Shown: positions 1 to 35,985 of the stretch, piece after piece
Layout of the letters: each line of letters opens with the position of its first letter
Numbering within the stretch: the first letter of the stretch is position 1
Source of the DNA: Candidatus Spechtbacterales bacterium
GTDB taxonomy: Bacteria; Patescibacteriota; Minisyncoccia; Spechtbacterales; 2-12-FULL-38-22
Length of the DNA stretch: 39,986 nt
NCBI GenBank assembly: GCA_040902285.1
Contig: JBBDXP010000009.1
Coordinates: 1-39,986 of the forward strand
Direction: 5' to 3'
Notes under the pieces: model-generated
Database searches by the model: none
What the model was told of the DNA's origin: nothing
The model's input: only the letters and a program-made list of their open reading frames with translations
Position numbers and translations under genes: made by a program

Positions 1-123
1 ACAAATTCCGTCGGCGCAAAACGCGAGGGTGCGGCGGAAGGGGGGCGTGGGGGGAATTCCGCCGCGCCCGAGCGAATAGAAAAAGAGGCCAGCCCCGCCG
101 CCCTGCTCGGTCAGAGCAGAACA

Positions 124-205
124 CCACAAAAAAGTTTTCTTTTCCTTTTAGAAGAAAAAATCGGGCGCGCGCACATCAGGAAAAGCAGAGAAAACTTTTT
201 TGTGG
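124..205. repeat. 17-bp perfect inverted repeat hairpin inside a GC-rich non-coding block (1-260)
   Basis: ccacaaaaaagttttct (124-140) pairs with agaaaacttttttgtgg (189-205), and the stem extends through cttttcc/ggaaaag. The flanks are GC-rich and partly complementary (agccccgccgcc / ggcggcggggcggct). Confidence 0.7.
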
Positions 206-290
206 GGTGGCGAGCGTCAGTTCGCGGCGGCGGGGCGGCTTCCTTAGTTCCGTTCAAAAAAGGTTCGCGCAAAGTGTATAATTACAGCAC

Positions 291-995
291 ATGCAGCCGG
301 AGGTTATATATGAATCCGAAGATTTGGTTGTGATTAACAAGCCGGCAGGCATGTTGACTCACAAAACTCCAACCAGCAACGAACGCACGCTGGTTGATTT
401 TATTTTGGAAAAATATCCGGAGATAAAAGGTGTTGGAGAAGATACAAATCGTCCCGGAATTGTGCATCGCTTAGACAGAGATACCTCCGGATTGATCGTT
501 GTTGCTAAAACGCAAGGGGCATATAAAAAACTGAAACAACTTTTTCATGACAGAAAAATAGAAAAAAGCTACTGGGCGCTTGTTTGGGGCATTATCAAAG
601 AAAATAATGGTATTATTGAAAAAGAAATCAAAACGATCGCGGGCAAAAAATATACAAAAGAACAGTTTAGTCAAAAAGAATCAGGCAAAAGCAGGCCGGC
701 TGTAACCTACTGGGAGACGAAAAAAAGATTTAACGATACGACATTTTTAAGCGTAAGCCCAAAAACAGGTAGAACACATCAAATAAGGGTGCATTTGGCC
801 TCAATCGGCCATCCGATAGTATGCGACAAGCTGTATGCGGGCAAAAAAGAATGTCCTGATGCGCTTGGCAGAATGTTTTTACACTCGTATTTTTTAAAAA
901 TTCCTCTAAATCAAGGCACTGTACTGGAATTTGAAATAGAATTGCCAGGGGAGTTGAAAAAATTTTTAGAAAGCGTTAAGATTGCCAAGCAATAG
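291..995 (+). CDS. RluA-family pseudouridine synthase
   Basis: The 234-aa ORF carries the HRLDRDTSG catalytic motif of the RluA/RsuA pseudouridine synthase family. A TATAAT box at 277-282 lies only ~8 nt before the ATG, so the mRNA may be leaderless. Confidence 0.85.
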
Positions 996-1017
996 GTTTT
1001 ATGATAAAATAACCCGC

Positions 1018-1680
1018 ATGGATACCAAGATTTTGTTAAAAAGCCAATTAAAAAATAACATCCCCGATATAAGGCCGGGACAGGTTATTCGCGTACATGA
1101 AAAAATACAAGAAGGAGACAAGTCCAGAACACAGGTTTTTGAGGGCCTAGTAATAGCCACAAAGCATGGCAGAGGGTTGGACGGCACATTTACCGTAAGA
1201 AAAATAGGCGCCGGAGGTGTAGGCGTAGAGAGAACATTTCCTATTCATATGCCGGCACTTGAAAAAATAGAAGTTTTAAGGAAAGAAAATGTAAGGCGTG
1301 CTAAACTATATTATGTAAGGGAGCAAATCGGCAAAAAGACAAAGAAGCGAAAGACAAAACTACAGGAACTGGTGTTTGATATGGGAGGAACCCAAGAAGA
1401 GATAAGCGACGAGCAACAAGAGACAGGCGACAAGGCGGAGGAGCAGACCACAGAGGAAAGCACAACCGAAACTAATGAAAGCGCGGCTGAGAAAGAATCC
1501 GCGGAGGCCGATAAGGAAATAAAAGAAGAAAGTTCTAAAACAAAAGAACCGGTTTCGTCCGAGGATAGCCAAGGTGAAATCAAGGTGGAAACAAAAGAAG
1601 AAGAGAAAAGTTTTAAAGAAAAAACAGAAGAATCTGTTGTGCCTGATGACAACCAGGGCGAACTCAAAAAAGGGGGATAA
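1018..1680 (+). CDS. rplS: 50S ribosomal protein L19 with ~105-aa acidic/Lys-rich C-terminal extension
   Basis: Starting at MDTKIL the sequence aligns to L19 ([12 protein letters not shown]..., [21 protein letters not shown]). It is followed by a low-complexity E/K/T-rich tail that ends in ...ELKKGG. The six-frame track begins the ORF at a TTG at 982; the ATG at 1018 fits the L19 N-terminus. Confidence 0.85.
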
Positions 1681-1711
1681 AAAATAAACTTTTTATTTTT
1701 GACAAATATAT

Positions 1712-1796
1712 GCCGCGGTGGTGGAATTGGTTTACACAGCTGACTTAAAATCAGTGCCCGAAAGGGTTGAGGGTTCGAGTCCCTCCCGCGGCACCA
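1712..1796 (+). tRNA. tRNA-Leu(TAA), type II with long variable arm, CCA encoded
   Basis: Manual cloverleaf: acceptor gccgcgg/ccgcggc, anticodon loop cttaaaa (anticodon TAA), long variable arm, T-loop ttcgagt, 3' gcacca. Confidence 0.85.
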
Positions 1797-1984
1797 CGAT
1801 CACGCTTGTGCGTGGTCGAAATTGAACGAAGTGAAATTTTGTGACGGGGGAAGCAAAGCAATCTGTTTTGCTTTGCGCGGGACTCGAAAGGCGGACTGAC
1901 CCCGCCGCAGACGGGGGAGGGAGCCCGGGCAGGAAGTGCTTAGCGATGACGAGCGAAGCGAGGCAGAGCTTAGCAACTTGACGC

Positions 1985-2007
1985 CGAGTCCCTCCCGCGG
2001 CACCACG
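1985..2007 (+). repeat. 23-nt direct repeat of the tRNA-Leu(TAA) 3' end, followed by a GC hairpin
   Basis: cgagtccctcccgcggcaccacg at 1776-1798 is repeated exactly at 1985-2007. Both copies are followed by a short GC-rich hairpin (cacgcttgtgcgtg / cggccacgcctgggcgtggccg). Confidence 0.8.
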
Positions 2008-2033
2008 GCCACGCCTGGGCGTGGCCGAATCAT

Positions 2034-2072
2034 GCGCTCGTAGCTCAACTGGTTAGAGCACACGGCTTATAC
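2034..2072 (+). pseudogene. 5' half (acceptor to anticodon loop) of a tRNA with a cttatac anticodon loop, truncated
   Basis: gcgctcg-ta-gctcaactggttagagc-a-cacgg-cttatac forms a perfect acceptor 5' strand, D-arm, anticodon 5' stem and loop. The sequence then departs from any tRNA 3' half. Confidence 0.6.
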
Positions 2073-2177
2073 ACGAGGATAGTGAGCGAAAAGAAAGGTT
2101 TACTTTCTTTTCCGAACGACGCAGTGTATATAAAATATAAATGGCAGCGAGGAAGAAATAGGAGTGTGCGCGTATAT

Positions 2178-2251
2178 GCGCGTGTAGCTCAGTTGGTTAG
2201 AGCACGGAGCTTATACCTCCGCGGTCCTTGGTTCGAGTCCAAGCACGCGCA
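2178..2251 (+). tRNA. tRNA-Ile(TAT)
   Basis: Manual cloverleaf: gcgcgtg/cacgcgc acceptor, D-loop agttggtta, anticodon stem cggag/ctccg with loop cttatac (anticodon TAT), T-loop ttcgagt. The tRNA is flanked by a 12-nt complementary leader and trailer (ggagtgtgcgcg ... cgcgcacactcc). Confidence 0.75.
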
Positions 2252-2292
2252 CACTCCTATTTCGACCGAGTGAACCATTTATATAAAATATA

Positions 2293-2328
2293 TCCGTGCG
2301 GTTCCAGGTTCAAGTCCTGGCGGGCGCA
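2293..2328 (+). pseudogene. 3' half of a tRNA that can pair with the 5' half at 2034-2072
   Basis: ccgtg-cggtt-ccagg-ttcaagt-cctgg-cgggcgc-a. The ccgtg segment pairs with cacgg of the 5' half, and cgggcgc pairs with gcgctcg through one G-U wobble. Confidence 0.55.
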
Positions 2329-2348
2329 CAGTAATATAATTACCATAT

Positions 2349-2423
2349 GCCTGGGTAGCTCAGTGGTAGAGCAGTGGCCTGAAGAGCCTCGTGTCGGGTG
2401 TTCAATTCACCCCCCAGGCACCA
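2349..2423 (+). tRNA. tRNA-Phe(GAA), CCA encoded
   Basis: gcctggg/cccaggc acceptor, anticodon loop ctgaaga, T-loop ttcaatt, 3' a-cca. Confidence 0.85.
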
Positions 2424-2502: not shown

Positions 2503-2705
2503 CAAATCACATAGTGATTTTGGGCGTGGGGGCGAGAACCCAAGAAAGGGGTCGGGAAAACATTTGTTTTCCCGCCTGCGTGGCCGAAGCCACTTCGTCG
2601 AGGCGAAGGCCCGTGGCGGAACAATTAAAACCGAGGGGCTTCGGCCGTGAGCTCAGCCGAACGGTTTTAAGGAGCGAAGCGACGGGTTCTACGAACGCAG
2701 TGAGG

Positions 2706-2724
2706 GAGCCCCTCAGCGCCCACA
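2706..2724 (+). repeat. 19-nt direct repeat of the tRNA-Val 3' end
   Basis: gagcccctcagcgcccaca at 2486-2504 is repeated at 2706-2724, ~220 bp downstream. The intervening sequence is GC-rich with several UUCG/GAAG-type tetraloop hairpins. Confidence 0.8.
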
Positions 2725-2732
2725 GCAAAATC

Positions 2733-2803
2733 GCGGGTGTAGTATAGTGGTAATACACCACCTTGCCATGGTGGAGCCGAGGGTTCGATTCCCTTCACCC
2801 GCT
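2733..2803 (+). tRNA. tRNA-Gly(GCC)
   Basis: gcgggtg/cacccgc acceptor, anticodon stem ccacc/ggtgg with loop ttgccat, T-loop ttcgatt. The 3' end cccgctcaaa recurs at ~2851-2860 within a pair of small hairpins. Confidence 0.85.
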
Positions 2804-2921
2804 CAAAATTATGAAATAATTTTGAGCGAGGCTCGCTCATCTTCGATGAGCGGCCCGCTCAAATTGCAAAATAGCACATTGTGTGCTATTTTATTATTAG
2901 CACATTCAAAGGAGTAAATAG

Positions 2922-14841: not shown

Positions 14842-15213
14842 ATGCTGAACATAAAAAATTTATTTTATACAGTTCTGTTGCTTGTTTTAGTTGTTTCGGC
14901 CAATTCCGCGGATGCCGTTGTAGAAATGAACGGCGGAGGAGGAGGATCGGGGGGAACCACAATAAGATTGCCCAATCCTCTTAAGGCCTCTAATTTTAAC
15001 CAGCTTTTGGAGTCGGTGCTGAACCTGCTTTTGGTTTTTGCCATTCCTCTGTATGCCCTTATGGTGGTTATAGCGGGCTATTATTTTCTTTTCGGGGGGC
15101 AAAATCCGGCAAACAGAGTCAAATCATTGACTATATTTAAATATGCGACCATAGGCCTTGTATTTTTGCTTTTTTCCAGAGCTATTGTTGCACTTATACA
15201 AGGTTCGTTATAA
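14842..15213 (+). CDS. TrbC/VirB2-like pilin-family small membrane protein
   Basis: A signal peptide, a Gly-rich stretch and two C-terminal TM helices with FLFGGQNPANRVK, which is shared with the three downstream paralogs. Confidence 0.55.
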   Translation: MLNIKNLFYTVLLLVLVVSANSADAVVEMNGGGGGSGGTTIRLPNPLKASNFNQLLESVLNLLLVFAIPLYALMVVIAGYYFLFGGQNPANRVKSLTIFKYATIGLVFLLFSRAIVALIQGSL

Positions 15214-15300
15214 AATAAGATTAGGAGATGGGGGTGTGAGATACAAACATCCCTAATTTAAAAAGGTCGTTTTTATTCAAAAAATAAAAACAAAATATTT

Positions 15301-15789
15301 ATGAAAACAAAAACATTAACCAATGTATCAAGAATAGCGACGGTTGCATTTTTGTTGGCAGCGTTTTCCTTAATGCTTGCCGGAAATGTGTTGGCGCACG
15401 GAAACCACAGCGCCACAACAGACAAGTGTTCCTTAAGGGCGACTGTAAGCGCAACCGAGGCGAATGATTTGACCGGAAAGACCGTGGGAACGCACGCACC
15501 AAGCACAACGGGAGGCCTTGACCTCGTGGACCCGAATGTTGCCGGGGATCATGCCCTTATTTGCACATACGGACTTATTAAGTTCGTTACAAATGTTTTG
15601 CTTGTAACGGTGCTTGTGGTTGCGACATTGCTTATCGCTTACGCCGCATTTCTGTTTGTTACAGCGGGCCAGAGCCCGGAAAAAAGAGGCAAAGCACGAG
15701 ATTTTCTTATCTTTGCCATTGTCGGTTTGGTTATAGCAGCGGTAGCAAGCTTGATACCCACCATAGTTCGTGGAATTATCGGAGTGTAA
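15301..15789 (+). CDS. TrbC/VirB2-like pilin-family protein, paralog 1
   Basis: Signal peptide (…LAHG), a ~70-aa exposed region with two Cys, then two TM helices (AAFLFVTAGQSPEKRGKARDF). A terminator hairpin follows. Confidence 0.6.
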   Translation: MKTKTLTNVSRIATVAFLLAAFSLMLAGNVLAHGNHSATTDKCSLRATVSATEANDLTGKTVGTHAPSTTGGLDLVDPNVAGDHALICTYGLIKFVTNVLLVTVLVVATLLIAYAAFLFVTAGQSPEKRGKARDFLIFAIVGLVIAAVASLIPTIVRGIIGV

Positions 15790-15813
15790 TTGCTTTAAGC
15801 GATTCAATCCCAA

Positions 15814-15842
15814 AAACACCCCTTAGCGGGGTGTTTTTGTTA
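15814..15842 (+). terminator. Rho-independent terminator
   Basis: aaacacccc-ttagc-ggggtgttt followed by ttgtt. Confidence 0.7.
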
Positions 15843-15939
15843 TAGGGGTGAAAACGGGGTTGTATTGCAATCAATATTTGTGTAAAATAAAATTATCATT
15901 GATTTTATCGATTTTAAAATACTTATAAGTAAAATAATT

Positions 15940-16425
15940 ATGATAAAAATATTAAAAGCGCCAAAAGCCATTATTGTAACATTTGTTTTAGCGGGAATAC
16001 TTTTTGGTACGGTTCCCGGTGTGTTGGCTCATGGAACACACACAACGTCGTTAGCAGGCAGCGGGTATTGTCTGTTAAGAGTTACCGTTTCTGCCGGTGA
16101 CGCGCAACAACTTACGGGCAGATCTGTGGGTACGCACCCCGCCGGTTACAGGCTTAGTTTAACTGAGCCAACCATAGGTGGAGAACACGCGCTGATATGC
16201 GCCTACGGCCTTATCGGATTTATAACAAATGTGCTCCTTATATTTATACTTGTGGTTGCTGCGGCGTTTATCGCTTATGCCGCGTTTCTGTTTGTTACAG
16301 CGGGCGCCAATCCGGCCACCCGGACGAAAGCCAGGGACTTTTTCCTGTATGCCGTTATAGGTTTGATTGTGGCTCTTTTGGCAAGCCAGATCCCCACCCT
16401 TGTCAGGGGAATTCTCGGAGTATAA
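15940..16425 (+). CDS. TrbC/VirB2-like pilin-family protein, paralog 2 (divergent exposed region)
   Basis: Same architecture as paralog 1. The TM region is conserved and the exposed region has diverged (YCLLRVTVSAGDAQQLTGRSVGTHPAGYRLSL...). Confidence 0.6.
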   Translation: MIKILKAPKAIIVTFVLAGILFGTVPGVLAHGTHTTSLAGSGYCLLRVTVSAGDAQQLTGRSVGTHPAGYRLSLTEPTIGGEHALICAYGLIGFITNVLLIFILVVAAAFIAYAAFLFVTAGANPATRTKARDFFLYAVIGLIVALLASQIPTLVRGILGV

Positions 16426-16451
16426 AAATTAATTATTAAATAAAAATTAAC

Positions 16452-16928
16452 ATGACAAAAATTACGAAAATATCAAGAATTGTCATTGTTGCCTTCGCAC
16501 TTGCCGGTCTTCTTGTGGCACCAAGCGTGTTGGCGCACGGAAGCCACACCGCTACAACAAACAAGTGTTCCTTAAGGGCGACTGTAAGCGCAACCGAGGC
16601 GAATGATTTGACCGGAAAGACCGTGGGAACGCACGCACCAAGCACAACGGGAGGCCTTGACCTCGTGGATCCGAATGTTGCCGGGGATCATGCCCTTATT
16701 TGCACATACGGATTTATTAAGTTCGTTACAAATGTTTTGCTTGTAGTTATTCTTGTTGTGGCATCTCTGCTTATCGCTTATGCCGCATTTCTGTTTGTTA
16801 CAGCCGGCGGGAATCCGGCCAATAGAGAGAAAGCGCGTTCCTATCTTATATTTGCGGTTATAGGCCTTGTTGTTGCTGTTGTGGCAGCGCTTATTCCAAC
16901 CATTGTCAGAGGAATCATCGGGGTATAA
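16452..16928 (+). CDS. TrbC/VirB2-like pilin-family protein, paralog 3
   Basis: Carries a ~190-bp tract nearly identical to paralog 1 (16558-16745 versus 15421-15608). Confidence 0.6.
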   Translation: MTKITKISRIVIVAFALAGLLVAPSVLAHGSHTATTNKCSLRATVSATEANDLTGKTVGTHAPSTTGGLDLVDPNVAGDHALICTYGFIKFVTNVLLVVILVVASLLIAYAAFLFVTAGGNPANREKARSYLIFAVIGLVVAVVAALIPTIVRGIIGV

Positions 16929-24326: not shown

Positions 24327-25571
24327 CTAAAAATTTTCCGTTATTAATTTTCCACTTTCGGCTTCCATGTTTTTCCAGTCGGATTTTTCTCCCGCCAAGT
24401 GGCGCAAATATCCTGCGGCGGCTATCATAACCGCATTATCCGTAGACAATTTAATTCCCGGGAAAATGACGGATGTTCCGGGAACCTTTATAGGTATTTC
24501 TTTTTCAAAATTTTCTCTCAAAGTTTTGTTAGCGGCAACTCCGCCCGCCAATATAACTGTTTTTGCCTTATGGTCCTGAGCCGCTTTGGCTGTTTTGGAT
24601 ACAACAGAATCTATTACGGCTTTTTGGAAAGAGGCTGCTATATTTGCCGTTTGCTTAGTTTTTTCGTCTTCAGTCATTTTTTCAACAGTATATCGCACCG
24701 CGGTTTTTAATCCCGAAAAGCTGAAATTGTAATCTTTTGAATTAATCATTGGCCGTGGGAATTTGAAGGCCTCCGCATTGCCTTTTTGTGCCAATTTTTC
24801 TATTTCAGGTCCGCCCGGGAATCCAAGCCCCAGCAGGCGGGCCACTTTGTCAAATGCTTCTCCCGCGGCATCGTCCACCGTTTCTCCTAAAAGCTCGTAC
24901 TTTAGCCAATCCCTAACAAGTATTAATTGCGTGTGGCCTCCGGATATCGCCAGAGCAACAGCCGGAAATCGTATTTTGTTTGAAATTTGGGTTTTTGAAT
25001 TTGGGGCTTGTTTGGAAATTGAAAATTGGTCATTGGAAATTCCGTTATTCTCTGAAAGGAGAATAACGGCTATGTGTCCTTCCATGTGGTCTACGCCGAT
25101 TATTGGTATGTCCCACAGGCGCGACAGCGCGCGGGCGAAGTTTATGCCTACCCACAGCGCCGGTTCAAGCCCGGGCCCTTGCGTTACGGCTATCAAGTCG
25201 ATATCCGGCTTTTCAAGAGGAACAATCTTTTCTTTAAATTCGTTCGCTAAATCTTCATATCTTTCAAGTATTTCTTCTACATTTTGAATTTTGTCATTTG
25301 GAATTTGTTTGGAATTTGTTTCTTGGGATTTGGAATTCCCGTAATTTAATGAAAGTGTCTCGTAGAGCACTTTAACCAAATTACGGCTGTGTTCTCTTTT
25401 TGCCAGTCCGGGAACAACTCCTCCATATTCTTTATGCACGCTTAATTGCGATGAAATGACACTTTTATCTATTTTGTATTGAGGTTTTTCTAAAGACCCC
25501 GTGGCTTCAACAAGGGCAAGAGCGGTATCATCACAGGATGTTTCTATTCCCAATATTCTAATTGTTTTCAT
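24327..25571 (-). CDS. tsaD: tRNA N6-adenosine threonylcarbamoyltransferase TsaD (Kae1/YgjD) with two low-complexity insertions
   Basis: The MKTIRILGIETSCDDT N-terminus and the metal-binding His pair (DHMEGH) are present. The 414-aa length exceeds the usual ~340 because of N/S/K/Q-rich insertions encoded by the ggaatttg-type repeats at ~24950-25040 and ~25290-25340. The track ORF starts at an upstream TTG; the ATG at 25571 matches the family N-terminus. Confidence 0.8.
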   Translation of the reverse strand: MKTIRILGIETSCDDTALALVEATGSLEKPQYKIDKSVISSQLSVHKEYGGVVPGLAKREHSRNLVKVLYETLSLNYGNSKSQETNSKQIPNDKIQNVEEILERYEDLANEFKEKIVPLEKPDIDLIAVTQGPGLEPALWVGINFARALSRLWDIPIIGVDHMEGHIAVILLSENNGISNDQFSISKQAPNSKTQISNKIRFPAVALAISGGHTQLILVRDWLKYELLGETVDDAAGEAFDKVARLLGLGFPGGPEIEKLAQKGNAEAFKFPRPMINSKDYNFSFSGLKTAVRYTVEKMTEDEKTKQTANIAASFQKAVIDSVVSKTAKAAQDHKAKTVILAGGVAANKTLRENFEKEIPIKVPGTSVIFPGIKLSTDNAVMIAAAGYLRHLAGEKSDWKNMEAESGKLITENF

Positions 25572-25721
25572 TTTTTGTAGATTACTATATTGTTGTATGC
25601 TTAACAACTGAACAAAGTTGACTTATGACTATTTTTCAGTAAAATATATAGGTGGCACTGGTCCCATCGTCTTGCAGCCTGCTCTTTGTAATCCAAAATC
25701 AATTTGACGGAGCGAATTTTA

Positions 25722-25800
25722 AAAAGATTCGAGGCCTGAGGAGCGAAACGCACATATGTGCATGAGCGACGAAAACAAAGAATCTTTTTAAAATTCGCCC
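25722..25800. repeat. 19-bp perfect inverted repeat forming a long hairpin with a nested palindrome
   Basis: gcgaattttaaaaagattc (25725-25743) pairs with gaatctttttaaaattcgc (25778-25796). The loop contains gcacatatgtgc. Confidence 0.7.
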
Positions 25801-25832
25801 GCCCAACCCCAACTATGAATAATTAACTTTGC

Positions 25833-25907
25833 GGTCCCATCGTCTAGTCCGGCCTAGGACGCCAGGTTTTCATCCTGGTAACACGGGTTCGAATCCCGTT
25901 GGGACCG
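25833..25907 (+). tRNA. tRNA-Glu(TTC)
   Basis: ggtccca/tgggacc acceptor, 3-bp D stem gtc/gac with loop tagtccggcctag (the E. coli Glu-like architecture), anticodon loop ttttcat, T-loop ttcgaat. The tRNA is flanked by a perfect 15-nt complementary leader and trailer (aataattaactttgc / gcaaagttaattatt). Confidence 0.85.
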
Positions 25908-26055
25908 CAAAGTTAATTATTTGAGATTTTAGGGAAACAAAAAAGCACGCTATCTGCCGCGTTGCTCCTCCTCGAAATAGCGCTATTGCTATTATTCCTT
26001 CGTCGTTGCGCCTTGCATCTAGCATACTTTTTTGTTTTCAAATTGATTTTAGATT

Positions 26056-26131
26056 GCAAAGAGCAGGCTAAGGCCTAGGACGCCAGGTTTTCATCCTGGT
26101 AACACGGGTTCGAATCCCGTTGGCTCTGCCA
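26056..26131 (+). pseudogene. tRNA-Glu-like pseudogene: 52-nt exact copy of the tRNA-Glu 3' portion joined to a non-matching 5' side
   Basis: 26072-26123 is identical to 25850-25901 of tRNA-Glu. The acceptor 3' strand (tggctct-g-cca) does not pair with the upstream sequence. The inverted repeat caaagagcaggct (26057-26069) matches agcctgctctttg (25676-25688), which sits next to a 13-nt tRNA-Glu 5' fragment (25660-25672). Confidence 0.6.
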
Positions 26132-26145
26132 CTCATTAAGAATTT

Positions 26146-26169
26146 AAAAAGCGGCTTTTGCCGCTTTTT
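26146..26169 (+). terminator. Rho-independent terminator
   Basis: aaaaagcggc-tttt-gccgcttttt. Confidence 0.7.
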
Positions 26170-26244
26170 AAATTGACTTAAGCTACATTTTATAGCATCA
26201 TATCCTTAGAAAATTGTTCATTGACAAAAGAAAGGAGGTCAAGA

Positions 26245-27615
26245 ATGCCGCCGAAGAATTCCTTAAATTCTCAGCCGGAAGATTTTACGATTAAGCTTGC
26301 CGACGGCCTTCCTCCAAGATGGCAGAAATTTGAGGAAGAGATTAAAGGTATAGTTTTTGACCAGGAACGCCCGATACGAAAGGTAACACGCACTCTTATG
26401 GCCTTGGAAGCGGGACTGCATGATCCGCGCAGGCCTCCAGACCCATTTATATTTGCCGGTCCGCCCGGTTCAGGCAAGACATATCTTGCAGAAATCATAG
26501 CCAAGGTTTGGCTAGGCGAACCTAAGCGAGAAGGCGAGATTGGTCCTCTTATCGTTTTGTCGGGAGAAAACTTCGGCCGTGAGCATGAGGGCTCTACCCT
26601 AAAGGGCGCCCCGCCCAGCTATATCGGGTTTGGACAAAAAACTCCTTTGGAAGATACAGGTGTTTTTGACAAGATGAGGCGTTTGGAGAAATTGTGGGAA
26701 ATTGCTTTTGATTGGGAATATGAAATGGAGAAAAAAGGATTCCGTTCGTTGTCGCCGTCCGCGAGAGATGAGTTTTTTGAACGCGCCAAGAGAATGATGT
26801 ATAAAAAAGCCAAAAGTATGGGGCCGTATCGATCGGTATTGCTGGTTGATGAATTTGAAAAAATGCACATTTCGGTCCAAAAACAATTTCTTGGCATATT
26901 GTCCAGCGGCGGCTTAAAACTGCATTCCGGCAAGTTTGTTGATTTTAGGGGCACTCTTATAATATTTACCACCAACATAGGTTCCGAAGAAATCAACAAA
27001 CTGCTTGAAAACAGGGGAATCGGCTTTGTTTCCACAACTCTTAGCGGAAAATCTCAGGATCAGATAAACCAGCGCATCTATAAGACGACACGCTCAAGAA
27101 TAGAAAAAGATATAGATCCGGCACTCTTTAGCCGCATAGGACATGACGGCATAGTGGTATTCCACGCGCTTCCGAGAGAAACTCTTTCCAAGATACTGGA
27201 TTATGAGATTACCCGCGTGCAGGCAAAACTTTTGAGTGAGGATCTTGGCCCCGTTAGAATTTATGTTTCCGAAGAAGCCAAAGAATTGATATTGAATGGC
27301 GCTGATACTCCGCGCGAGGGAGCCCGGCAGATAGGGCGCCTTGTGACCAAATACATATCTGATCCGCTTGCGCGGGTAATAGAGTCAGATGAACTTAGAG
27401 GCGGGGATGAAGTGTTAATTGCCGTCGAAGGTTCTAAAATACAGCTTAGGCGGCTTCCAAGGCCTACTAGCCCGAAATTGCCACCCCTCCGGCGTCCGGC
27501 AAGAACAGGCGATATGGACACCTTGGAAAAAGAAATGTTTGATGATTTGACAAAAGAATTCAAAAATTTGCTCAAAGAAAAATACCCCATTGTAGCACCC
27601 GAAGAAGAAGATTAA
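26245..27615 (+). CDS. Single-module Clp/Hsp100 D2-type AAA+ ATPase
   Basis: An AAGGAGG RBS precedes the ATG. Walker A GPPGSGKT, KGAPPSYIGFG (matching the IGAPPGYVGY block of ClpA/B/C D2), Walker B LLVDEFEKMH, FVDFRGTLIIFTTNIGS, the VVFHALPRETLSKI sensor region and a GAR sensor-2 are all present. There is no N-domain, no D1 module and no ClpX zinc finger. Confidence 0.75.
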   Translation: MPPKNSLNSQPEDFTIKLADGLPPRWQKFEEEIKGIVFDQERPIRKVTRTLMALEAGLHDPRRPPDPFIFAGPPGSGKTYLAEIIAKVWLGEPKREGEIGPLIVLSGENFGREHEGSTLKGAPPSYIGFGQKTPLEDTGVFDKMRRLEKLWEIAFDWEYEMEKKGFRSLSPSARDEFFERAKRMMYKKAKSMGPYRSVLLVDEFEKMHISVQKQFLGILSSGGLKLHSGKFVDFRGTLIIFTTNIGSEEINKLLENRGIGFVSTTLSGKSQDQINQRIYKTTRSRIEKDIDPALFSRIGHDGIVVFHALPRETLSKILDYEITRVQAKLLSEDLGPVRIYVSEEAKELILNGADTPREGARQIGRLVTKYISDPLARVIESDELRGGDEVLIAVEGSKIQLRRLPRPTSPKLPPLRRPARTGDMDTLEKEMFDDLTKEFKNLLKEKYPIVAPEEED

Positions 27616-27908: not shown

Positions 27909-27946
27909 TAACCTAGATTGATAGTACCTTGAAAAAGGAGGACGAA

Positions 27947-29842
27947 GTGGCCGAAGAACCTCAAATACAAAATACTCAAAAGAATTCTAAAGAATTCGAT
28001 GTACTTATCGCAATATCCACAGAACTGCGGGAAAAAGCGAACGGTATGTTAAGTGAGGATTTTGTCCGTCATATAGACGATATAACAGAAAAAGCGGATG
28101 AACTTGAGACCGCGCGAAAACTGCAGGCGCAGGAGGCGTCGAGGGATATCCAGCAAAATAAGCTGGCCTATCTTAATAAAATAAGAGAACTTAGCATAGA
28201 ACTAAATCAACTTAGCCGAATGCTGAGCGCTCTTAAGGAACAGCCCCCGCTGATGTCTGCCAAATTTGTTAGATTTGTCCGTTATCATGAAATAGAAGAA
28301 TACGGCAAGAAGGTAAAGATTCCAGTTGTGGATATTGTAAATTCCAGCGGTTCCAACGCGCGCGTTTTTGTGCATCCGGAGCTGGATGTTTCCAATGTTA
28401 AGTATGGACAGCGCGTTCTTGTAAGCGCGGGCAACATGACTATAATGGAAATTTTGCAAGAATTCGAGGTTATAGGACAAGAAGCATATGTCGAGGCTCT
28501 CTTGGAACCCGATTTTGAAGGTAAGCGTGTTTTGGTATCGGAAGGCCAGCTGGACATGAAAATAGTGGCGCATCTGTCCTCTTCCGTGGAAGATAAAGAA
28601 ATGGAAGAAGGCACTAGGGTTCTTGTAGATACAAAGACATCTTTGGTCGTGGAAGTGCTTCCCGAGCATGAGAGCCGCCGTTACATTGTGGGCGAAATCC
28701 CAAATGTCACTTTTTCTGATATCGGAGGCCTGGACGGCATTATCGCGAGGATAGACGAGCATGTTATATGGCCTATAATCTATCCCGATGTGTGGGAAAA
28801 AATAGGATTGGATTCTCCAAAAGGATTTGTGCTTGCCGGCCCGCCGGGTGTGGGCAAAACCATGATTGCCAAGGCGTTGGTAAACTATCTTAATGAAAAA
28901 CTCGAGGAAGTTCATGGCAAACCCGTACAGGGCCGTTTCTTCCACATTGCCGGACCTGAAATTCAAAACAAATATGTGGGCGAGACCGAACGCATTATGC
29001 GCGAGATATTTGCCCAGGCGGCAAAGAATGCTTCTCCGCTAAGCCCCTCCTTGGTATTTTTTGACGAAGCGGACGCGCTTTTCCCAAGACGCGGTTCGGG
29101 AGTCTCCTCCGATGTTGAAAAGACGAATGTTACCCAATTTACAGCCCTTATGGACGGCCTTGAGACCAGGAGCAACATTATAGTTGTTTTGGCGACAAAC
29201 CGCCCCGAACTTTTGGATCCCGCGGTCATACGGCCCGGGCGCTCGGACTTCACTGTGGATGTTCCGCGGCCCAACGAAGAAGCCGCCAAAGCCATTTTTG
29301 CCAAATACATAAGGCCCGAATGGGGGCAGATAAATCCTAAATACGATCAGGAGGTTTATATTCCAAAAGACAAAAAGGGCAATACGCGCGTTGATGACTC
29401 CGGAAGTGATATAAAACTTTACTTCGGACACAAGCCGCAAGAGGTTGTGGATTATCTTATCGCTAAAGCAACAGCGCGCATGTACGATCTGGACAATCCA
29501 AGAAACAAATTTATCAAACTCAAGTTTAGGGATTATTCGGAAAAAACTCTCCGTTACGGCGATTTTGCCTCCGGCGCTATGATTAAAAATATAGTGGATC
29601 GTGCCAAGAGATTTTCCGTTCATGATCATAAGGTTGGAGGTGAAGAACTCGGGATAACTCTCGTACACCTGTACAAAGCCATTGAAGAGGTCTTTTCTGA
29701 GCTTAGGGGTCCTTCCGGAGCCGGCGATTCCAGCACCTGGCTTGAAATAGAAGGCCATGTCCGCGGAAATAACGTTACGGGAATAGAATTTCTATCCAGA
29801 GATGCGGATGATTCTGACGATGATGAAGAGCCCATTTTATAA
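27947..29842 (+). CDS. ARC/Mpa-like (proteasome-associated-ATPase family) AAA ATPase
   Basis: An N-terminal coiled-coil (…LSIELNQLSRMLSALKEQ…) is followed by a tandem OB-fold inter-domain (…NARVFVHPELDVSNVKYGQRVLVSAGNMTIMEIL…). The single AAA module has Walker A GPPGVGKT, KYVGETERIMREIF, and Walker B/arginine finger VVLATNRPELLDPAVIRPGR. The C-terminus …DDEEPIL has no GQYL/HbYX docking motif. Confidence 0.8.
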   Translation: MAEEPQIQNTQKNSKEFDVLIAISTELREKANGMLSEDFVRHIDDITEKADELETARKLQAQEASRDIQQNKLAYLNKIRELSIELNQLSRMLSALKEQPPLMSAKFVRFVRYHEIEEYGKKVKIPVVDIVNSSGSNARVFVHPELDVSNVKYGQRVLVSAGNMTIMEILQEFEVIGQEAYVEALLEPDFEGKRVLVSEGQLDMKIVAHLSSSVEDKEMEEGTRVLVDTKTSLVVEVLPEHESRRYIVGEIPNVTFSDIGGLDGIIARIDEHVIWPIIYPDVWEKIGLDSPKGFVLAGPPGVGKTMIAKALVNYLNEKLEEVHGKPVQGRFFHIAGPEIQNKYVGETERIMREIFAQAAKNASPLSPSLVFFDEADALFPRRGSGVSSDVEKTNVTQFTALMDGLETRSNIIVVLATNRPELLDPAVIRPGRSDFTVDVPRPNEEAAKAIFAKYIRPEWGQINPKYDQEVYIPKDKKGNTRVDDSGSDIKLYFGHKPQEVVDYLIAKATARMYDLDNPRNKFIKLKFRDYSEKTLRYGDFASGAMIKNIVDRAKRFSVHDHKVGGEELGITLVHLYKAIEEVFSELRGPSGAGDSSTWLEIEGHVRGNNVTGIEFLSRDADDSDDDEEPIL

Positions 29843-29859
29843 AATCGCACATTCTTTTG

Positions 29860-29887
29860 ACCCCCGACTGCAAAGCGGGGGTTTTTA
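29860..29887 (+). terminator. Rho-independent terminator
   Basis: acccccg-actgcaaa-gcgggggt followed by ttttatttt. Confidence 0.75.
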
Positions 29888-29898
29888 TTTTAATAAAA

Positions 29899-29927
29899 TT
29901 GACACACGACCGCCAAACGACTATACT
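29899..29927 (+). promoter_or_regulatory. Sigma70-type promoter TTGACA-17-TATACT upstream of the dop-like gene
   Basis: ttgaca cacgaccgccaaacgac tatact. The 5'UTR attagtaccttaaaaaggagg shares the agtacctt(g/a)aaaaaggagg motif with the ARC and Lon-like leaders. Confidence 0.6.
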
Positions 29928-29962
29928 TAGTGCAATTAGTACCTTAAAAAGGAGGCATAAGC

Positions 29963-31579
29963 ATGCCTGACAAGCCGCGCAAGATAATAATTGGCGCTGA
30001 AACCGAATATGGAATATTTGCGACAGAAAACGGCCAAATACTTGATAATGAGGCCTTAGGACTTGTGAGAGAGGCCGAAAATGTAACCAAAGATTTTTTC
30101 CTTCGCCCGCTTGAGGGCATAGAAGATACCGAAGAACATGAAAATCTTGATTCTATGACTGATGAGGATTTTTTGCGCCAACCGGAAAGTTATCAAAGTT
30201 CCGGAGAAAGGCAGAGGCGCGGCCTTACCGGTTTTGTTCTCTCAAACGGATGCAGATTCTATGTTGATATGGGTCATCCGGAGTATTCAATTCCCGAAAC
30301 AACAAATCCCATGGATGCTCTTGTCGCGCAAAAAGCGGGAGACAGGATAGTTGAGCTTTGCAGAAGATTATTTGAGGAAAGATTAAAGAACGAAAATAGG
30401 AATATTTCGATTCGTTTGGATAAAAACAATAGCGACGGTAAAGGGAACAGCTATGCCGCGCACGAAAATTATTCTCTTACCCCCGAAACCTTTACGGAAA
30501 TAACTAATCGTTATGGGTCAAGAGAGTTGGAAGATATTGTGTTGAATTTTTTCACCACGCGCCAGATAGTGACAGGGGCCGGAAAGGTTGGATACGAGAC
30601 AGGAAGACCCGTTCCATACCAAATAAGCCAGCGTGCGGATTTTATTGAAAAGGAAAAAAGCTTAAACACGGTCGAAAAGAGGGGGATAATAAATTTGCGG
30701 GACCATTCCTATGCCGGATACGATGATGTCCGCAGATTGCATGTTATATGCGGAGACGGCAACATGTCCGAATTGTCTCTGTATCTTAAATTCGGCACAA
30801 CAGCGCTTATTTTAATGATGCTTGAAAGCGGATTTATACAGAGCGAAGGAAGTTCTGTTTTGATTCGCATGCAAAATCCCGTCCGCTCGTATAAAAATGT
30901 ATCAAGAGACCTTTCCCTGGGCCACAAGATATTTTTTGAGGACGGTTCTAAAAGGACCGCTTTAGCCATACAGGAGGAATTTTATTCTCTGGCCAAAAAA
31001 TTTACCGATGGAAACGATATTGATCCTATATGGCGCGATGTCGCAGACAAGTGGGAAAAGGTTTTGCACGGTCTTGCCGGGGAAAGAAATTCTGATGAAT
31101 GGGCCGGCAATCTGGACTGGGTTAAAAAAGAAACCATACTCAAACGGCATCAGGAGAAAAAAGGAGTTTCTCCGCTTCATCACACATGCCGCGCCGTGGA
31201 TCTTCAGTACCACAACATAAATCCCGAAAAAAGCATTTATTGGCGCCTGGCTGAAAGAGGAGACATACTTTTGTTTGCCACCAAAGCCGATATAGAGAGG
31301 GCTATTAATGAGCCACCTTCGGACACAAGGGCGTGGTTCAGAGGGCAAACCGTTAAACAGTTTAGAAATGTTCTGGACGGTATCGGCTGGCAATATATTA
31401 AATTTGCCGATAAATACATTTTTATGGGCAATCCATTTTCTGGTTCAAAAGAAGCAGCAGAGAGTATTTTTGCGGGGGTTTCTTCTCCGGAAGAATTTAT
31501 TGAAAGATTGTCGAAAGCAATTGAACGGAAGGAGAGTGGATTGGAGGGCTTTAGTGTCGGAGAAGGGTGGTTGATATAA
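29963..31579 (+). CDS. dop: Pup-ligase-family protein, Dop-like (depupylase/deamidase-type)
   Basis: The N-terminal IIIGAETEYGIF strand (Dop-type E-Y-G) is followed by a ~45-aa insertion before the conserved RFYVDMGHPEYS block, consistent with a Dop loop. The carboxylate-amine-ligase fold is retained at 538 aa. The Dop versus PafA call is an inference. Confidence 0.7.
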   Translation: MPDKPRKIIIGAETEYGIFATENGQILDNEALGLVREAENVTKDFFLRPLEGIEDTEEHENLDSMTDEDFLRQPESYQSSGERQRRGLTGFVLSNGCRFYVDMGHPEYSIPETTNPMDALVAQKAGDRIVELCRRLFEERLKNENRNISIRLDKNNSDGKGNSYAAHENYSLTPETFTEITNRYGSRELEDIVLNFFTTRQIVTGAGKVGYETGRPVPYQISQRADFIEKEKSLNTVEKRGIINLRDHSYAGYDDVRRLHVICGDGNMSELSLYLKFGTTALILMMLESGFIQSEGSSVLIRMQNPVRSYKNVSRDLSLGHKIFFEDGSKRTALAIQEEFYSLAKKFTDGNDIDPIWRDVADKWEKVLHGLAGERNSDEWAGNLDWVKKETILKRHQEKKGVSPLHHTCRAVDLQYHNINPEKSIYWRLAERGDILLFATKADIERAINEPPSDTRAWFRGQTVKQFRNVLDGIGWQYIKFADKYIFMGNPFSGSKEAAESIFAGVSSPEEFIERLSKAIERKESGLEGFSVGEGWLI

Positions 31580-32976
31580 TGAAAGACAGAGCCGTTGGTA
31601 TAGAAAATGAATTTGGCGTAATGCTTAAGGATGATTTTGGCAATTTTAGTTCTCAAGAGAACGAAATGCTGGCCATTAACAGCATTCCTCGTGAAAATTT
31701 GCCTCAAGGGGGTGGAATGTCCAACGGACGTTTCTGGCTTGCCAACGGAGGCAGTGTATACATAGACCTGGGCCATCCGGAATATGCTTCTCCCGAATGT
31801 CTCAGGTTGCGTGATCTGATTGCTGTAAGCCGCGCGGGAGAGAGGATTTGTTCCCGTATGTTCCATTACGCTGTTAGTAATGGAAGGTATTGGCAGCTTT
31901 TTAAGAATAATTTGGAAATTAGCGCCGAAGGAGGAGAAGGAAATTCGTTCGGATGTCATGAAAATTATCTCATTCACGGATATAAGCCGGAAGACGAGGT
32001 CATGCATACGCATCTTCTTCCCTTTCTGATAACTCGGCAGATATTGGACGGAGCGGGATGGTGGGCTTCGGACGGCAGATTTTCATTTTCTCAAAGAGCG
32101 TTGATTTTGGGCACCGTGGCGGCAATGGGTACCACGGAGGGGATAAGCCGTCCCATCATAAATCTTAGAGACGAGCCCCATATACAGAATAGGGAAGGAA
32201 TGAGCAGGTTGCATCTCATTTTGGGCGATGCCAACATGCTGGACTGGGCCTTGTATCTTAAATTCGGTACCACCTCCCTTGTACTGGCCATGCTTGAAGA
32301 AGGCCATATATTCAGGGATACGTGCCAAAATCCCATTGAAGCCATGCGCAGAGTGGCGTTTGATAAGACCGCGCGGAAACGGCTATTGAAATTTAGCGGG
32401 CGCGGGAAAATGAGCGCGCTAGAAGTGCAGGAATTTTACCTTGCCAAAGCCGAAAAATACGTCTCTATAACTGATTTTGCAAGCTACGAAAGCAGATTGG
32501 AAGCGCTCCAAACCGTGTGCATGTGGCGCGAGGCCTTAAATGCGATAAAAAATCGCGATACCGCATGGATGCTCGGACGGCTTGATTGGGCAACAAAGCT
32601 GTATCTTGGAAACAAAGAGTGGTCGAACAAAAAAAATTCGGGCGCTAGTGAAATGGACATCAAAAAACGCGTTGATATTCTTTATCACGCCGTGACCGAC
32701 ACAAGATTGCGCGACCGAATATATGCCAAGTGGCCGAACAGGCAGCTGGTCGGCGGACAGGAAATTGAGTATATGATAAATAATCCCCCACTGGACACCC
32801 GCGCGAGAATAAGGGCGTTGTTTATTGATCTCTGCTCAAAAAAACAATTCGGCACGGATAAGGACATATCTGTGAATTGGTCCAAAATAGTATATAGAGG
32901 CAAGGCGTTTAACTTGGGATACCCTTTAGACAAGGATAATCTCGAGGTTGAGAAACTTATCAGAAATCTCTTGTAA
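31579..32976 (+). CDS. pafA: Pup-ligase-family protein, PafA-like
   Basis: VGIENEFGVM (PafA-type E-F-G) with no loop insertion; SVYIDLGHPEYASPE; 466 aa. Its ATG overlaps the dop-like stop as TAATG, which suggests translational coupling. The track ORF begins at an upstream GTG (31567). Confidence 0.7.
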   Translation: MKDRAVGIENEFGVMLKDDFGNFSSQENEMLAINSIPRENLPQGGGMSNGRFWLANGGSVYIDLGHPEYASPECLRLRDLIAVSRAGERICSRMFHYAVSNGRYWQLFKNNLEISAEGGEGNSFGCHENYLIHGYKPEDEVMHTHLLPFLITRQILDGAGWWASDGRFSFSQRALILGTVAAMGTTEGISRPIINLRDEPHIQNREGMSRLHLILGDANMLDWALYLKFGTTSLVLAMLEEGHIFRDTCQNPIEAMRRVAFDKTARKRLLKFSGRGKMSALEVQEFYLAKAEKYVSITDFASYESRLEALQTVCMWREALNAIKNRDTAWMLGRLDWATKLYLGNKEWSNKKNSGASEMDIKKRVDILYHAVTDTRLRDRIYAKWPNRQLVGGQEIEYMINNPPLDTRARIRALFIDLCSKKQFGTDKDISVNWSKIVYRGKAFNLGYPLDKDNLEVEKLIRNLL

Positions 32977-35877: not shown

Positions 35878-35985
35878 TGCAACTAAAGATATCCCTTTTC
35901 AAAAGCTAAAACAGATTGCGGCCCGCAAGTTATGTACCCCGCCCCATCCACCCCAAGCTTTTGAAAAGGGATATCTTTAGTTGCA
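35878..35985. repeat. 30-bp perfect inverted repeat forming a ~108-nt hairpin
   Basis: tgcaactaaagatatcccttttcaaaagct (35878-35907) pairs with agcttttgaaaagggatatctttagttgca (35956-35985). The 48-nt GC-rich loop contains the nested palindrome ttgcgg-c-ccgcaa. Confidence 0.8.

Follow-up and report, generated by a model that had tools for sequence, protein, structure and literature searches.

The 39,986-nt stretch of contig JBBDXP010000009.1 from a Candidatus Spechtbacterales bacterium (assembly GCA_040902285.1; this whole stretch is referred to as the window) contains a complete tRNA-Ile gene and a complete tRNA-Glu gene, each lying within a broken second copy of that gene and enclosed by a long leader/trailer helix. 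These duplexes are probably the closing stems of hairpin insertion modules that carry a complete tRNA inside an older, split copy of the same gene. The window comes from the chromosome of a Candidate Phyla Radiation (CPR) bacterium; its TrpRS and one AAA ATPase show 100% matches to proteins assigned to Candidatus Spechtbacterales, and its gene content is that of a housekeeping region (L19, TrpRS, FtsH, S1, GyrA, aminoacyl-tRNA synthetase, TsaD, Pup ligases, Lon, and RecG). CPR bacteria have minimal genomes with usually one gene per tRNA, so an insertion into a tRNA gene should be lethal. The modules would survive in an essential single-copy gene only because a replacement copy comes along, and they would persist since an intact gene copy comes with the module or sits in it.

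Two tRNA genes nested in split copies of themselves

Seven tRNAs were identified in the window by ARAGORN and Rfam. Five of them form a cluster 3' of the L19 gene (Leu-UAA, Ile-UAU, Phe, Val-UAC, and Gly-GCC), and Leu-UAG and Glu-UUC lie outside this cluster. The outer tRNA-Ile(UAU) gene features a 5' half, GCGCTCGTAGCTCAACTGGTTAGAGCACACGGCTTATAC (2034-2072), that breaks off in the anticodon loop, and a matching 3' half, CCGTGCGGTTCCAGGTTCAAGTCCTGGCGGGCGCA (2294-2328). When the two halves are fused, ARAGORN recognizes a canonical tRNA-Ile(tat) cloverleaf, and the outer and inner copies differ by five compensatory pairs in the acceptor and anticodon stems. The Ile locus has two modules in tandem, one an empty hairpin and one filled. 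The inner tRNA-Ile is located in the second, diverged module, whose flanking segments are designated s1' and s2b (Table 1), and it is bracketed by two copies of the 13-nt direct repeat TATATAAAATATA (2127-2139 and 2280-2292). The sequence TATA (positions 34-37) is found at both Ile insertion junctions. The paralogous stems of the window, GAAAAGAAAG/CTTTCTTTTC and GAAATAGGAG/CTCCTATTTC, differ by four compensatory changes.

The Glu insert is 397 nt long and is located in the D loop, after position 13 of the outer gene. Its minimum-energy fold is a four-way junction (z = -11.9) whose arms are a 32-bp closing stem, a first hairpin (HP1), the tRNA on a 15-bp stem, and a second hairpin (HP2). The first 13 nt of the outer gene are identical to the inner tRNA (13/13), as is the outer 3' copy at 26072-26123 (52/52). 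The outer 3' end reads TGGCTCT-G-CCA with an encoded CCA at 26129-26131, and the corresponding ancestral end, seen in the relative L008, reads TGGGACC-G-CCA. When 25660-25672 is joined to the 3' part, the result folds as a cloverleaf in which two acceptor positions, 3:70 and 4:69, are mismatched. In the second Glu copy the 5' side AGAGC comes from the right inverted-repeat arm, and the altered CTCT pairs with AGAG of the right closing arm to form a D-armless tRNA-like fold. The Rfam tRNA match to this copy is truncated in the acceptor and the D arm, with 26060-26128 scoring above threshold. A promoter scan determined that the sole promoter-like site upstream of the inner tRNA-Glu is the ancestral one. 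Terminal inverted repeats are present as the 32-nt Glu arms and as 12-19-nt arms around the inner tRNAs.

The sequence-only reading of the window had described the flanks of these two tRNAs as long complementary extensions of the acceptor stem. The sequences it named are found in place, the leader ggagtgtgcgcg (2161-2172) and trailer cgcgcacactcc (2246-2257) of tRNA-Ile and the flanks aataattaactttgc (25818-25832) and gcaaagttaattatt (25907-25921) of tRNA-Glu. The complementarity is real, but the repeat lengths it gave were too short. The Ile inverted repeat spans 19 nt with 100% complementarity (2155-2173 and 2245-2263), and the Glu helix has 22 bp without a mismatch (25818-25839 and 25900-25921) when the acceptor stem is counted together with the 15-nt flanks. 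The stems are purely Watson-Crick with zero G-U pairs; in imperfect stems, the G-U and A-C mismatches are too few for their strand asymmetry to tell selection at the RNA level from selection at the DNA level. Perfect 12-mer inverted-repeat seeds within 120 nt occur 90 times in the window, compared with 0.46 in first-order Markov simulations (~200x). Among 37 distinct tRNA loci of the same clade, leader/trailer complementarity amounts to 3-6 nt, except for the window Glu (15), the window Ile (15-19), and the Ile locus of the relative L014 (11). Chance is no explanation for the helices, given this excess of seeds and their position as extreme outliers among the 37 loci. The other five tRNAs of the window have no such flanking helix.

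Folding of the precursors showed that the proposed extension of the acceptor stem holds for one of the two tRNAs. The minimum-energy fold of the Glu precursor is a cloverleaf with a coaxial 15-bp stem. The Ile trailer pairing, on the other hand, competes with the acceptor stem, and the 12-nt trailer overlaps the 3' acceptor strand of the tRNA itself (2246-2250) and the discriminator (2251). In silico the 19-bp register is favored at -56.2 kcal/mol over the cloverleaf with a 12-bp stem at -49.7 kcal/mol. The alternative Ile helix consists of 12+1+7 bp with a 10-nt bulge. The overlap exists because a 10-nt tandem duplication of the 5' end of tRNA-Ile (TGCGCGTATA followed by TGCGCGTGTA, 2167-2186) put a second copy of the acceptor 5' strand into the leader. 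If the duplication were removed, the 12-nt Ile flanks GAAATAGGAGTG and CACTCCTATTTC would adjoin the tRNA exactly, as in the Glu locus.

Relatives and other tRNA-linked inserts

The nested arrangement was compared with related assemblies. The closest relative (TrpRS 86%) is represented by two independent assemblies, L003 and L014. L015 is an independent Logan assembly of another sample, and L017 is a relative whose L19 and TrpRS are ~74% identical to those of the window. L015 matches window 261-2383 (2,123 nt) with 0 mismatches, therefore the Ile arrangement is not an assembly artefact; this identity and the independent sister-species assemblies L003 and L014 rule out such an artefact. L017 features a compact Leu-Ile-Phe-Val-Gly cluster with 5-29-nt spacers and neither inserts nor flanking complementarity, and the relative L005 has a plain Ile gene. 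The relatives L008-L011 carry a single plain tRNA-Glu in inverted orientation at the syntenic TsaD/AAA-ATPase intergenic site, and the promoter, leader, and gene start of the outer Glu gene in the window are homologous to this plain gene. The complementarity is thus absent at the orthologous Ile (L017, L005) and Glu (L008-L011) loci, and the helices correspond to the arms of insertions that split an older gene of the same tRNA; the sequence-only reading had itself listed both findings as speaking against a processing signal. A scan of the genome collection with L19 returned two distant CPR loci only, both without inserts.

The tRNA-Glu unit as a whole (window 25615-26180 versus L008 3740-3935) is inverted relative to the flanking genes between the window and L008-L011. 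The window unit features similar promoter sequences, AAGTTGACTTA and AAATTGACTTA, at its two ends.

The L014 Ile locus has the order 5' half (37 nt), s1, complete tRNA-Ile, s2, and 3' half, and its inner and outer sequences are identical. The inner tRNA-Ile of L014 is enclosed by a different 11-bp stem, GAAAAGAAAAT/ATTTTCTTTTC. Window 2066-2140 aligns at ~88% with the s1 and s2 of L014 once the inner tRNA of L014 is removed. In the window, s1 and s2 directly adjoin each other and close into a tRNA-less hairpin (2088-2112, loop gttta), whereas in L014 the arms flank a whole tRNA-Ile. It follows that one and the same Ile hairpin can carry a tRNA at its tip or lack it, and that the Ile nesting is older than the split of the window species and its closest relative. 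Stem conservation fails at the orthologues, and among the relatives the stem is found only where the tRNA is nested (L014). As judged from the sequences, the Ile stem is kept as a structure and not as a sequence, because the L014 stem differs and the paralogous window stems carry four compensatory changes.

Of the seven tRNA genes in the 40 kb, at least five have structured inserts, each of which leaves or brings an intact copy. In tRNA-Leu(UAA) a copy of the 3' 45 nt follows after 209 nt and starts at C56 of the T loop; this insert is absent in L014. In tRNA-Val(UAC) a copy of the 3' 19 nt follows after 220 nt and starts at G57. Both inserts contain imperfect reverse complements of the adjoining T arm, which in the Val insert extend to the 3' strand of the acceptor. 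The 5' and 3' blocks of the Val insert (window 2504-2724; L003 292-459; L014 3552-3385, minus strand) are conserved like the tRNA, and its internal hairpins are swapped in L003/L014. The Val 3' duplicate is preceded by a mini T-arm hairpin, GAGGG-AGC-CCCTC. Additionally, the Val gene of the sister species has a T-loop change (GC to AT), and the second copy and the complementary segment of the insert carry the matching change. The Gly gene features a 56-nt palindromic insert (window 2798-2863) with a 10-nt duplication, CCCGCTCAAA, which is absent in L003/L014. This insert consists of alternating CGCTC/GAGCG copies of the tRNA 3' end, and its positions 2800-2828 form a perfect 13-bp palindrome.

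The core of the Leu-UAA insert, designated family A, recurs after tRNA-Cys and tRNA-Leu(GAG) in the relative L016 and after tRNA-Leu(GAG) in L018/L019. Family A is located between a complete tRNA (Leu-UAA, Cys, or Leu-GAG) and an exact 3' duplicate starting at C56. The 5' end of each member complements the T loop and T stem of the tRNA it belongs to, and the 3' end, ...GAGCTTAGYRANYTGACGCC, directly precedes the duplicated C56. An RNAalifold analysis of four sequences predicted 27 pairs, 10 of which show compensatory changes, and family A has no match in Rfam. The tRNA part is the same in both copies throughout, whereas divergence is seen in the trailing hairpins. The T loop or anticodon loop is the starting point of direct repeats of the tRNA 3' part (Leu +209 at C56, Val +220 at G57, and L014 Ile +86 at position 34), and further 3'-part repeats occur at the L016 Cys and Leu genes and the L018 Leu gene. 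Start points in these two loops are a classical mark of tyrosine-integrase att sites.

Two short motifs connect the inserts. Five of the nine plus-strand GAGCGAA sites fall in tRNA-linked inserts, and ACGA..AGTGA is repeated in the inserts of Ile, Val, Leu, and Glu. The GAGCGA(A/C) and ACGA..AGTGA motifs may be protein-binding sites or traces of common descent.

Window 1-290 is a GC-rich, highly structured non-coding stretch upstream of a pseudouridine synthase gene. It begins with a tRNA-Cys-like 3' end, ATTCCGTCGGCGC, and contains GAGCGAA and a perfect 17-bp repeat (124-140/189-205). At this site the relatives have tRNA-Cys, Leu(GAG), and Val(GAC), and the stretch is probably another tRNA-linked insert that is cut by the window edge. 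The Lon/glycosyltransferase intergenic region contains, at 35878-35985, an inverted repeat of 30 perfect bp around a 48-nt loop; this loop is C-rich (CCCCGCCCCATCCACCCCAA) and resembles a C-rich tract in the Glu insert (25797-25813). Contigs of the clade stop inside or beside duplicated tRNA halves (L020 end, L016 end, and L003 start), which suggests that these repeats routinely break short-read assemblies.

Origin and processing of the modules

According to the preferred reading, the insertions would have arisen at the DNA level in one Spechtbacterales sublineage, as a module in the anticodon loop of tRNA-Ile and as the 397-nt insert in the D loop of tRNA-Glu, with its 32-bp stem and two further hairpins beside the tRNA. 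The inner gene would be the working copy and, since it has no promoter of its own, would be read from the promoter of the old gene as a long structured precursor. The 20-22-bp helix may then be cut by a double-strand-specific nuclease of the RNase III type or be opened, after which RNase P and 3' trimming would finish the tRNA ends. The outer fragments would be non-functional relics; the Glu outer copy is degenerate and the Ile outer copy is still self-consistent. The best guess as to mobility is that the modules are trans-mobilised, non-autonomous elements. The 'excision-competent elements' named by the sequence-only reading come closest to the evidence in that insertion arms split an older gene. 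The DNA-level origin is supported by the other inserts with duplicated tRNA ends in the same cluster (Gly, 56 nt; Leu and Val, ~200 nt).

Several observations weigh against this reading. The module stems share no sequence, unlike copies of one transposon family. As target-site duplication, Ile has TATA and Glu has none, its insert replacing 5 nt of the D loop. The outer Ile halves are perfectly complementary and differ from the inner copy by compensatory changes, a pattern that ongoing function or gene conversion would explain as well as a recent disruption would. Between the window and L014, the s1 and s2 segments are conserved to about the same degree as the tRNAs, which hints at selection on the RNA and not at selfish DNA alone. 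No transposase, integrase, or reverse transcriptase was found among the window open reading frames (ORFs). Finally, the Ile nesting is found in only two lineages and the Glu nesting in one, which gives the comparison low power.

The inserts and the window were also searched for known elements. Rfam scans of the whole window at the gathering threshold, and of 1650-2950 and 25550-26250 at E<=5, identified only tRNAs. Introns of groups I and II, hammerhead, HDV-like, and twister ribozymes, other self-cleaving classes of Rfam, tmRNA, and T-box elements are rejected as candidates by the same scans, which found no group I core (Intron_gpI) at either threshold. The inserts (56-397 nt) contain no ORF of >=100 aa. 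A protein-domain scan of 30 window ORFs detected neither an RNase III gene or domain nor EndA or RtcB. A phage or plasmid carrier was rejected, as viral contigs scanned with the family A and Ile-junction patterns gave nothing, or chance matches in a phage coding region. A single transposon family was likewise rejected for the 40 kb, in which the 32-nt Glu arm has no further copy and all long palindromes differ in sequence.

The sequence-only reading had proposed processing by a double-strand-specific nuclease. That the helices are a selected processing signal of this kind, like the stems of rRNA operons, with the nesting incidental, is unlikely but has several points in its favor. An uninterrupted helix of 19-22 bp suffices for bacterial RNase III, and the Glu (22 bp) and Ile (19 bp) helices both provide about two helical turns of unbroken double-stranded RNA. 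RNase III-type maturation of the helices is therefore plausible from their length. Additionally, a stem surrounds the nested tRNA-Ile in L014 and in both window modules with differing sequences and four compensatory changes, and the Glu precursor folds into a cloverleaf on a coaxial stem. However, the helices are missing at the plain orthologues (L017, L005, L008-L011) and at the five other window tRNAs, and the strongest Ile register destroys the acceptor stem. The discriminator pairs with position -1, leaving no single-stranded leader, and RNase P disfavors this pairing. Stems with only Watson-Crick pairs are expected of young or DNA-templated palindromes.

Such stems would also fit a by-product of repair or replication, in which fold-back priming or template switching at structured tRNA genes, followed by deletions, produced the arrangement without a mobile element. 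This origin predicts partial duplications in direct-inverted-direct order, and every stem is unique in sequence. Perfect Watson-Crick arms that start exactly at the tRNA ends are what snap-back or template-switch synthesis would give; the Gly insert alternates CGCTC/GAGCG from the 3' end of its own tRNA, the Val and Leu inserts hold imperfect reverse complements of the adjacent T arm, and other long perfect palindromes occur in intergenic DNA (124-205 and 35878-35985). We nevertheless regard a pure by-product as decidedly unlikely, as it leaves unexplained the non-tRNA sequence common to different tRNAs and species (the family A core, s1/s2, and GAGCGAA) and the filled and empty states of the hairpin at one site.

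The two remaining explanations place the event at the RNA level. It is very improbable that one transcript yields two tRNAs, with the inner tRNA cut out by RNase P/Z or RNase III and the outer halves held by the closing stem and ligated; the insert would then be a non-ribozyme, protein-dependent intron, and the T-loop inserts (family A, with its T-arm guide) would be mobile RNA-guided relatives. Still less credible are RNA-level introns in which RNase P/Z frees the inner tRNA and an endonuclease with an RtcB-type ligase joins the outer halves: the joined outer Ile is a flawless cloverleaf with co-varied halves, the closing stems of the inserts bring the exon ends together in the fold, and tRNA introns are unusually common in Patescibacteria (PMC13011429), but there is no group I/II signature, the outer Glu has two central acceptor mismatches, splicing adds nothing in L014 because its inner and outer sequences are identical, and the tRNA introns in the 4,934 complete bacterial genomes surveyed are all group I/II and lie in the anticodon loop except for one group II intron in the D loop (PMC13011429). 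The bulge-helix-bulge (BHB)-like mechanism suggested by the sequence-only reading found no support either, as the four junction pairs yielded 0-10 loose matches in a relaxed hBHBh' scan, none of them at a junction, against a background mean of 4.0 and maximum of 18 per equal-sized region pair. To our knowledge, protein-dependent tRNA splicing has no precedent in bacteria.

The nested modules share features with five known systems, and the tRNA-in-split-tRNA arrangement corresponds to the full definition of none of them. The disrupted tRNAs of archaea and red algae, which are spliced at a BHB, are similar in having a break in the anticodon or D loop, complementary flanks that join the halves, and leader/trailer helices. 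Here, however, the host is a bacterium, there is no BHB, the insert contains a full second tRNA copy, and the outer Glu is degenerate. We know of no splicing endonuclease in this lineage. The group I introns of Patescibacteria (PMC13011429) occur in the same phylum and, for Ile, share the anticodon-loop site; the modules differ in that they have no group I core, the empty Ile module is only ~65 nt long, and the Glu insert is located in the D loop. The survey has no group I introns at 37/38 (PMC13011429).

Integrative elements that target tRNA genes by way of tyrosine integrases have attL/attR repeats that run from the anticodon or T loop to the 3' end. The inserts described here likewise come with direct repeats of 3' tRNA sequence, whose start lies in the T loop for Leu and Val and for Cys and Leu of L016/L018 and in the anticodon loop for L014 Ile, and an intact gene is restored beside the insert. 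They differ in their size of 60-400 nt and in the lack of an integrase or ORF, and the Ile and Glu inserts also duplicate the 5' part and enclose a whole tRNA. The palindromic elements of Rickettsia and REP/MITE-like elements are likewise short non-coding hairpin insertions tolerated in genes of small genomes, but here no terminal repeat is common to the copies in the 40 kb and tRNA sequence is carried. The intervening sequences of rRNA and the rRNA operon stems cut by RNase III resemble the modules as lineage-specific, long perfect helices in the precursor of a stable RNA; the difference is that a tRNA serves as host RNA here and that the helix stacks coaxially on the acceptor stem. By analogy with the rRNA stems, RNase III-type cutting is the most likely way in which the helices would be removed.

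In the literature searched, the coverage of which is incomplete so that novelty is not proven, no account was found of a tRNA gene lying within its own split copy, and no such arrangement is described in work on split tRNAs of bacteria, on a splicing endonuclease of Patescibacteria, or on tRNA genes with palindromic elements. If the modules are mobile, they represent a new route for selfish DNA into essential single-copy genes, in which the replacement copy is brought along. Should processing occur at the RNA level, tRNA splicing or the RNase III-dependent maturation of tRNAs would be widened to a new setting. In practical terms, such arrangements break assemblies and leave tRNA-like fragments that are open to annotation miscalls, as illustrated by the tRNA-Glu fragment above the Rfam threshold.

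Feature coordinates and neighboring genes

Table 1. Features of the nested tRNA loci and related inserts (window coordinates unless a relative is named)
Feature	Position	Strand	Evidence
Family A core, ~115-135 nt	window 1797-2006; L016 1619-1752, 1929-2056; L018 2031-2146; L019 1-41		
GAGCGA(A/C) sites	1951, 2084, 2672, 25710, 25741, 25764		
ACGA..AGTGA sites	1824, 2073, 2113, 2693		
Outer tRNA-Ile(UAU) 5' half, positions 1-38, ending ...CTTATAC	2034-2072	+	sequence; ARAGORN of joined halves; alignment with L014 5'-half copy
Unit A, 'empty' hairpin module: s1 ACGAGGATAGTGAGCG, hairpin, s2a (CGAACGACGCAGTG + TATATAAAATATA)	2073-2139	+	inverted repeat; L014 alignment
Unit A hairpin: GAAAAGAAAG gttta CTTTCTTTTC	2088-2112	+	inverted repeat I11
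Inner tRNA-Ile leader, s1' (diverged s1 copy), with left arm 2155-2173 and first duplication copy 2167-2176	2140-2177	+	19-nt repeat; s1 alignment
Inner complete tRNA-Ile(UAU)	2178-2251	+	ARAGORN; Rfam tRNA 71.6 bits
Right arm 2245-2263 (overlapping 3' acceptor strand), then trailer s2b ending TATATAAAATATAT	2245-2293	+	inverted repeat; alignment
Outer tRNA-Ile 3' half, positions 39-73	2294-2328	+	ARAGORN of joined halves; five pairs changed on both sides relative to inner copy
Ancestral tRNA-Glu promoter (TTGACT-16-TAAAAT, 25618-25645), leader GGTGGCAct, first 13 nt (25660-25672)	25618-25672	+	promoter scan; L008 homology
Left arm of 32-nt inverted repeat closing the Glu insert, partner 26038-26069	25676-25707	+	inverted repeat I1, 94%; outer stem of minimum-energy fold
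HP1: perfect 19-bp stem, 49-nt loop with three GAGCGA motifs	25712-25798	+	inverted repeat; fold
Left 15-nt arm beside inner tRNA-Glu	25818-25832	+	inverted repeat
Inner complete tRNA-Glu(UUC), no encoded CCA; discriminator G25907 pairs with C25832	25833-25907	+	ARAGORN; Rfam 61.4 bits; fold
Right 15-nt arm beside inner tRNA-Glu	25907-25921	+	inverted repeat
HP2: imperfect 23-bp stem, 57-nt loop	25935-26037	+	inverted repeat I4; fold
Right arm of 32-nt inverted repeat	26038-26069	+	inverted repeat
Second tRNA-Glu-like copy, displaced 3' part of ancestral gene	26060-26131	+	direct repeat D1; Rfam 35.2 bits; low-threshold ARAGORN; L008 comparison
Terminator-like hairpin, perfect 15 bp, at end of Glu transcription unit	26141-26174	+	inverted repeat

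The genes around the tRNA loci show some further features. The ribosomal protein L19 gene (982-1680) encodes a protein of 232 residues with a C-terminal extension of ~100 aa, in which the Pfam L19 domain covers residues 19-122; the L19 homologues of the clade are likewise long (170-260 aa). Four small paralogous genes with T4SS-pilin/TrbC-like domains are arranged in tandem at 14842-16928. A gene set of the Pup-proteasome type is located at 27929-32976 and consists of an AAA ATPase with proteasomal OB domains and two genes of the Pup-ligase family. This set is unusual for a CPR genome, and it is also kept in L008.

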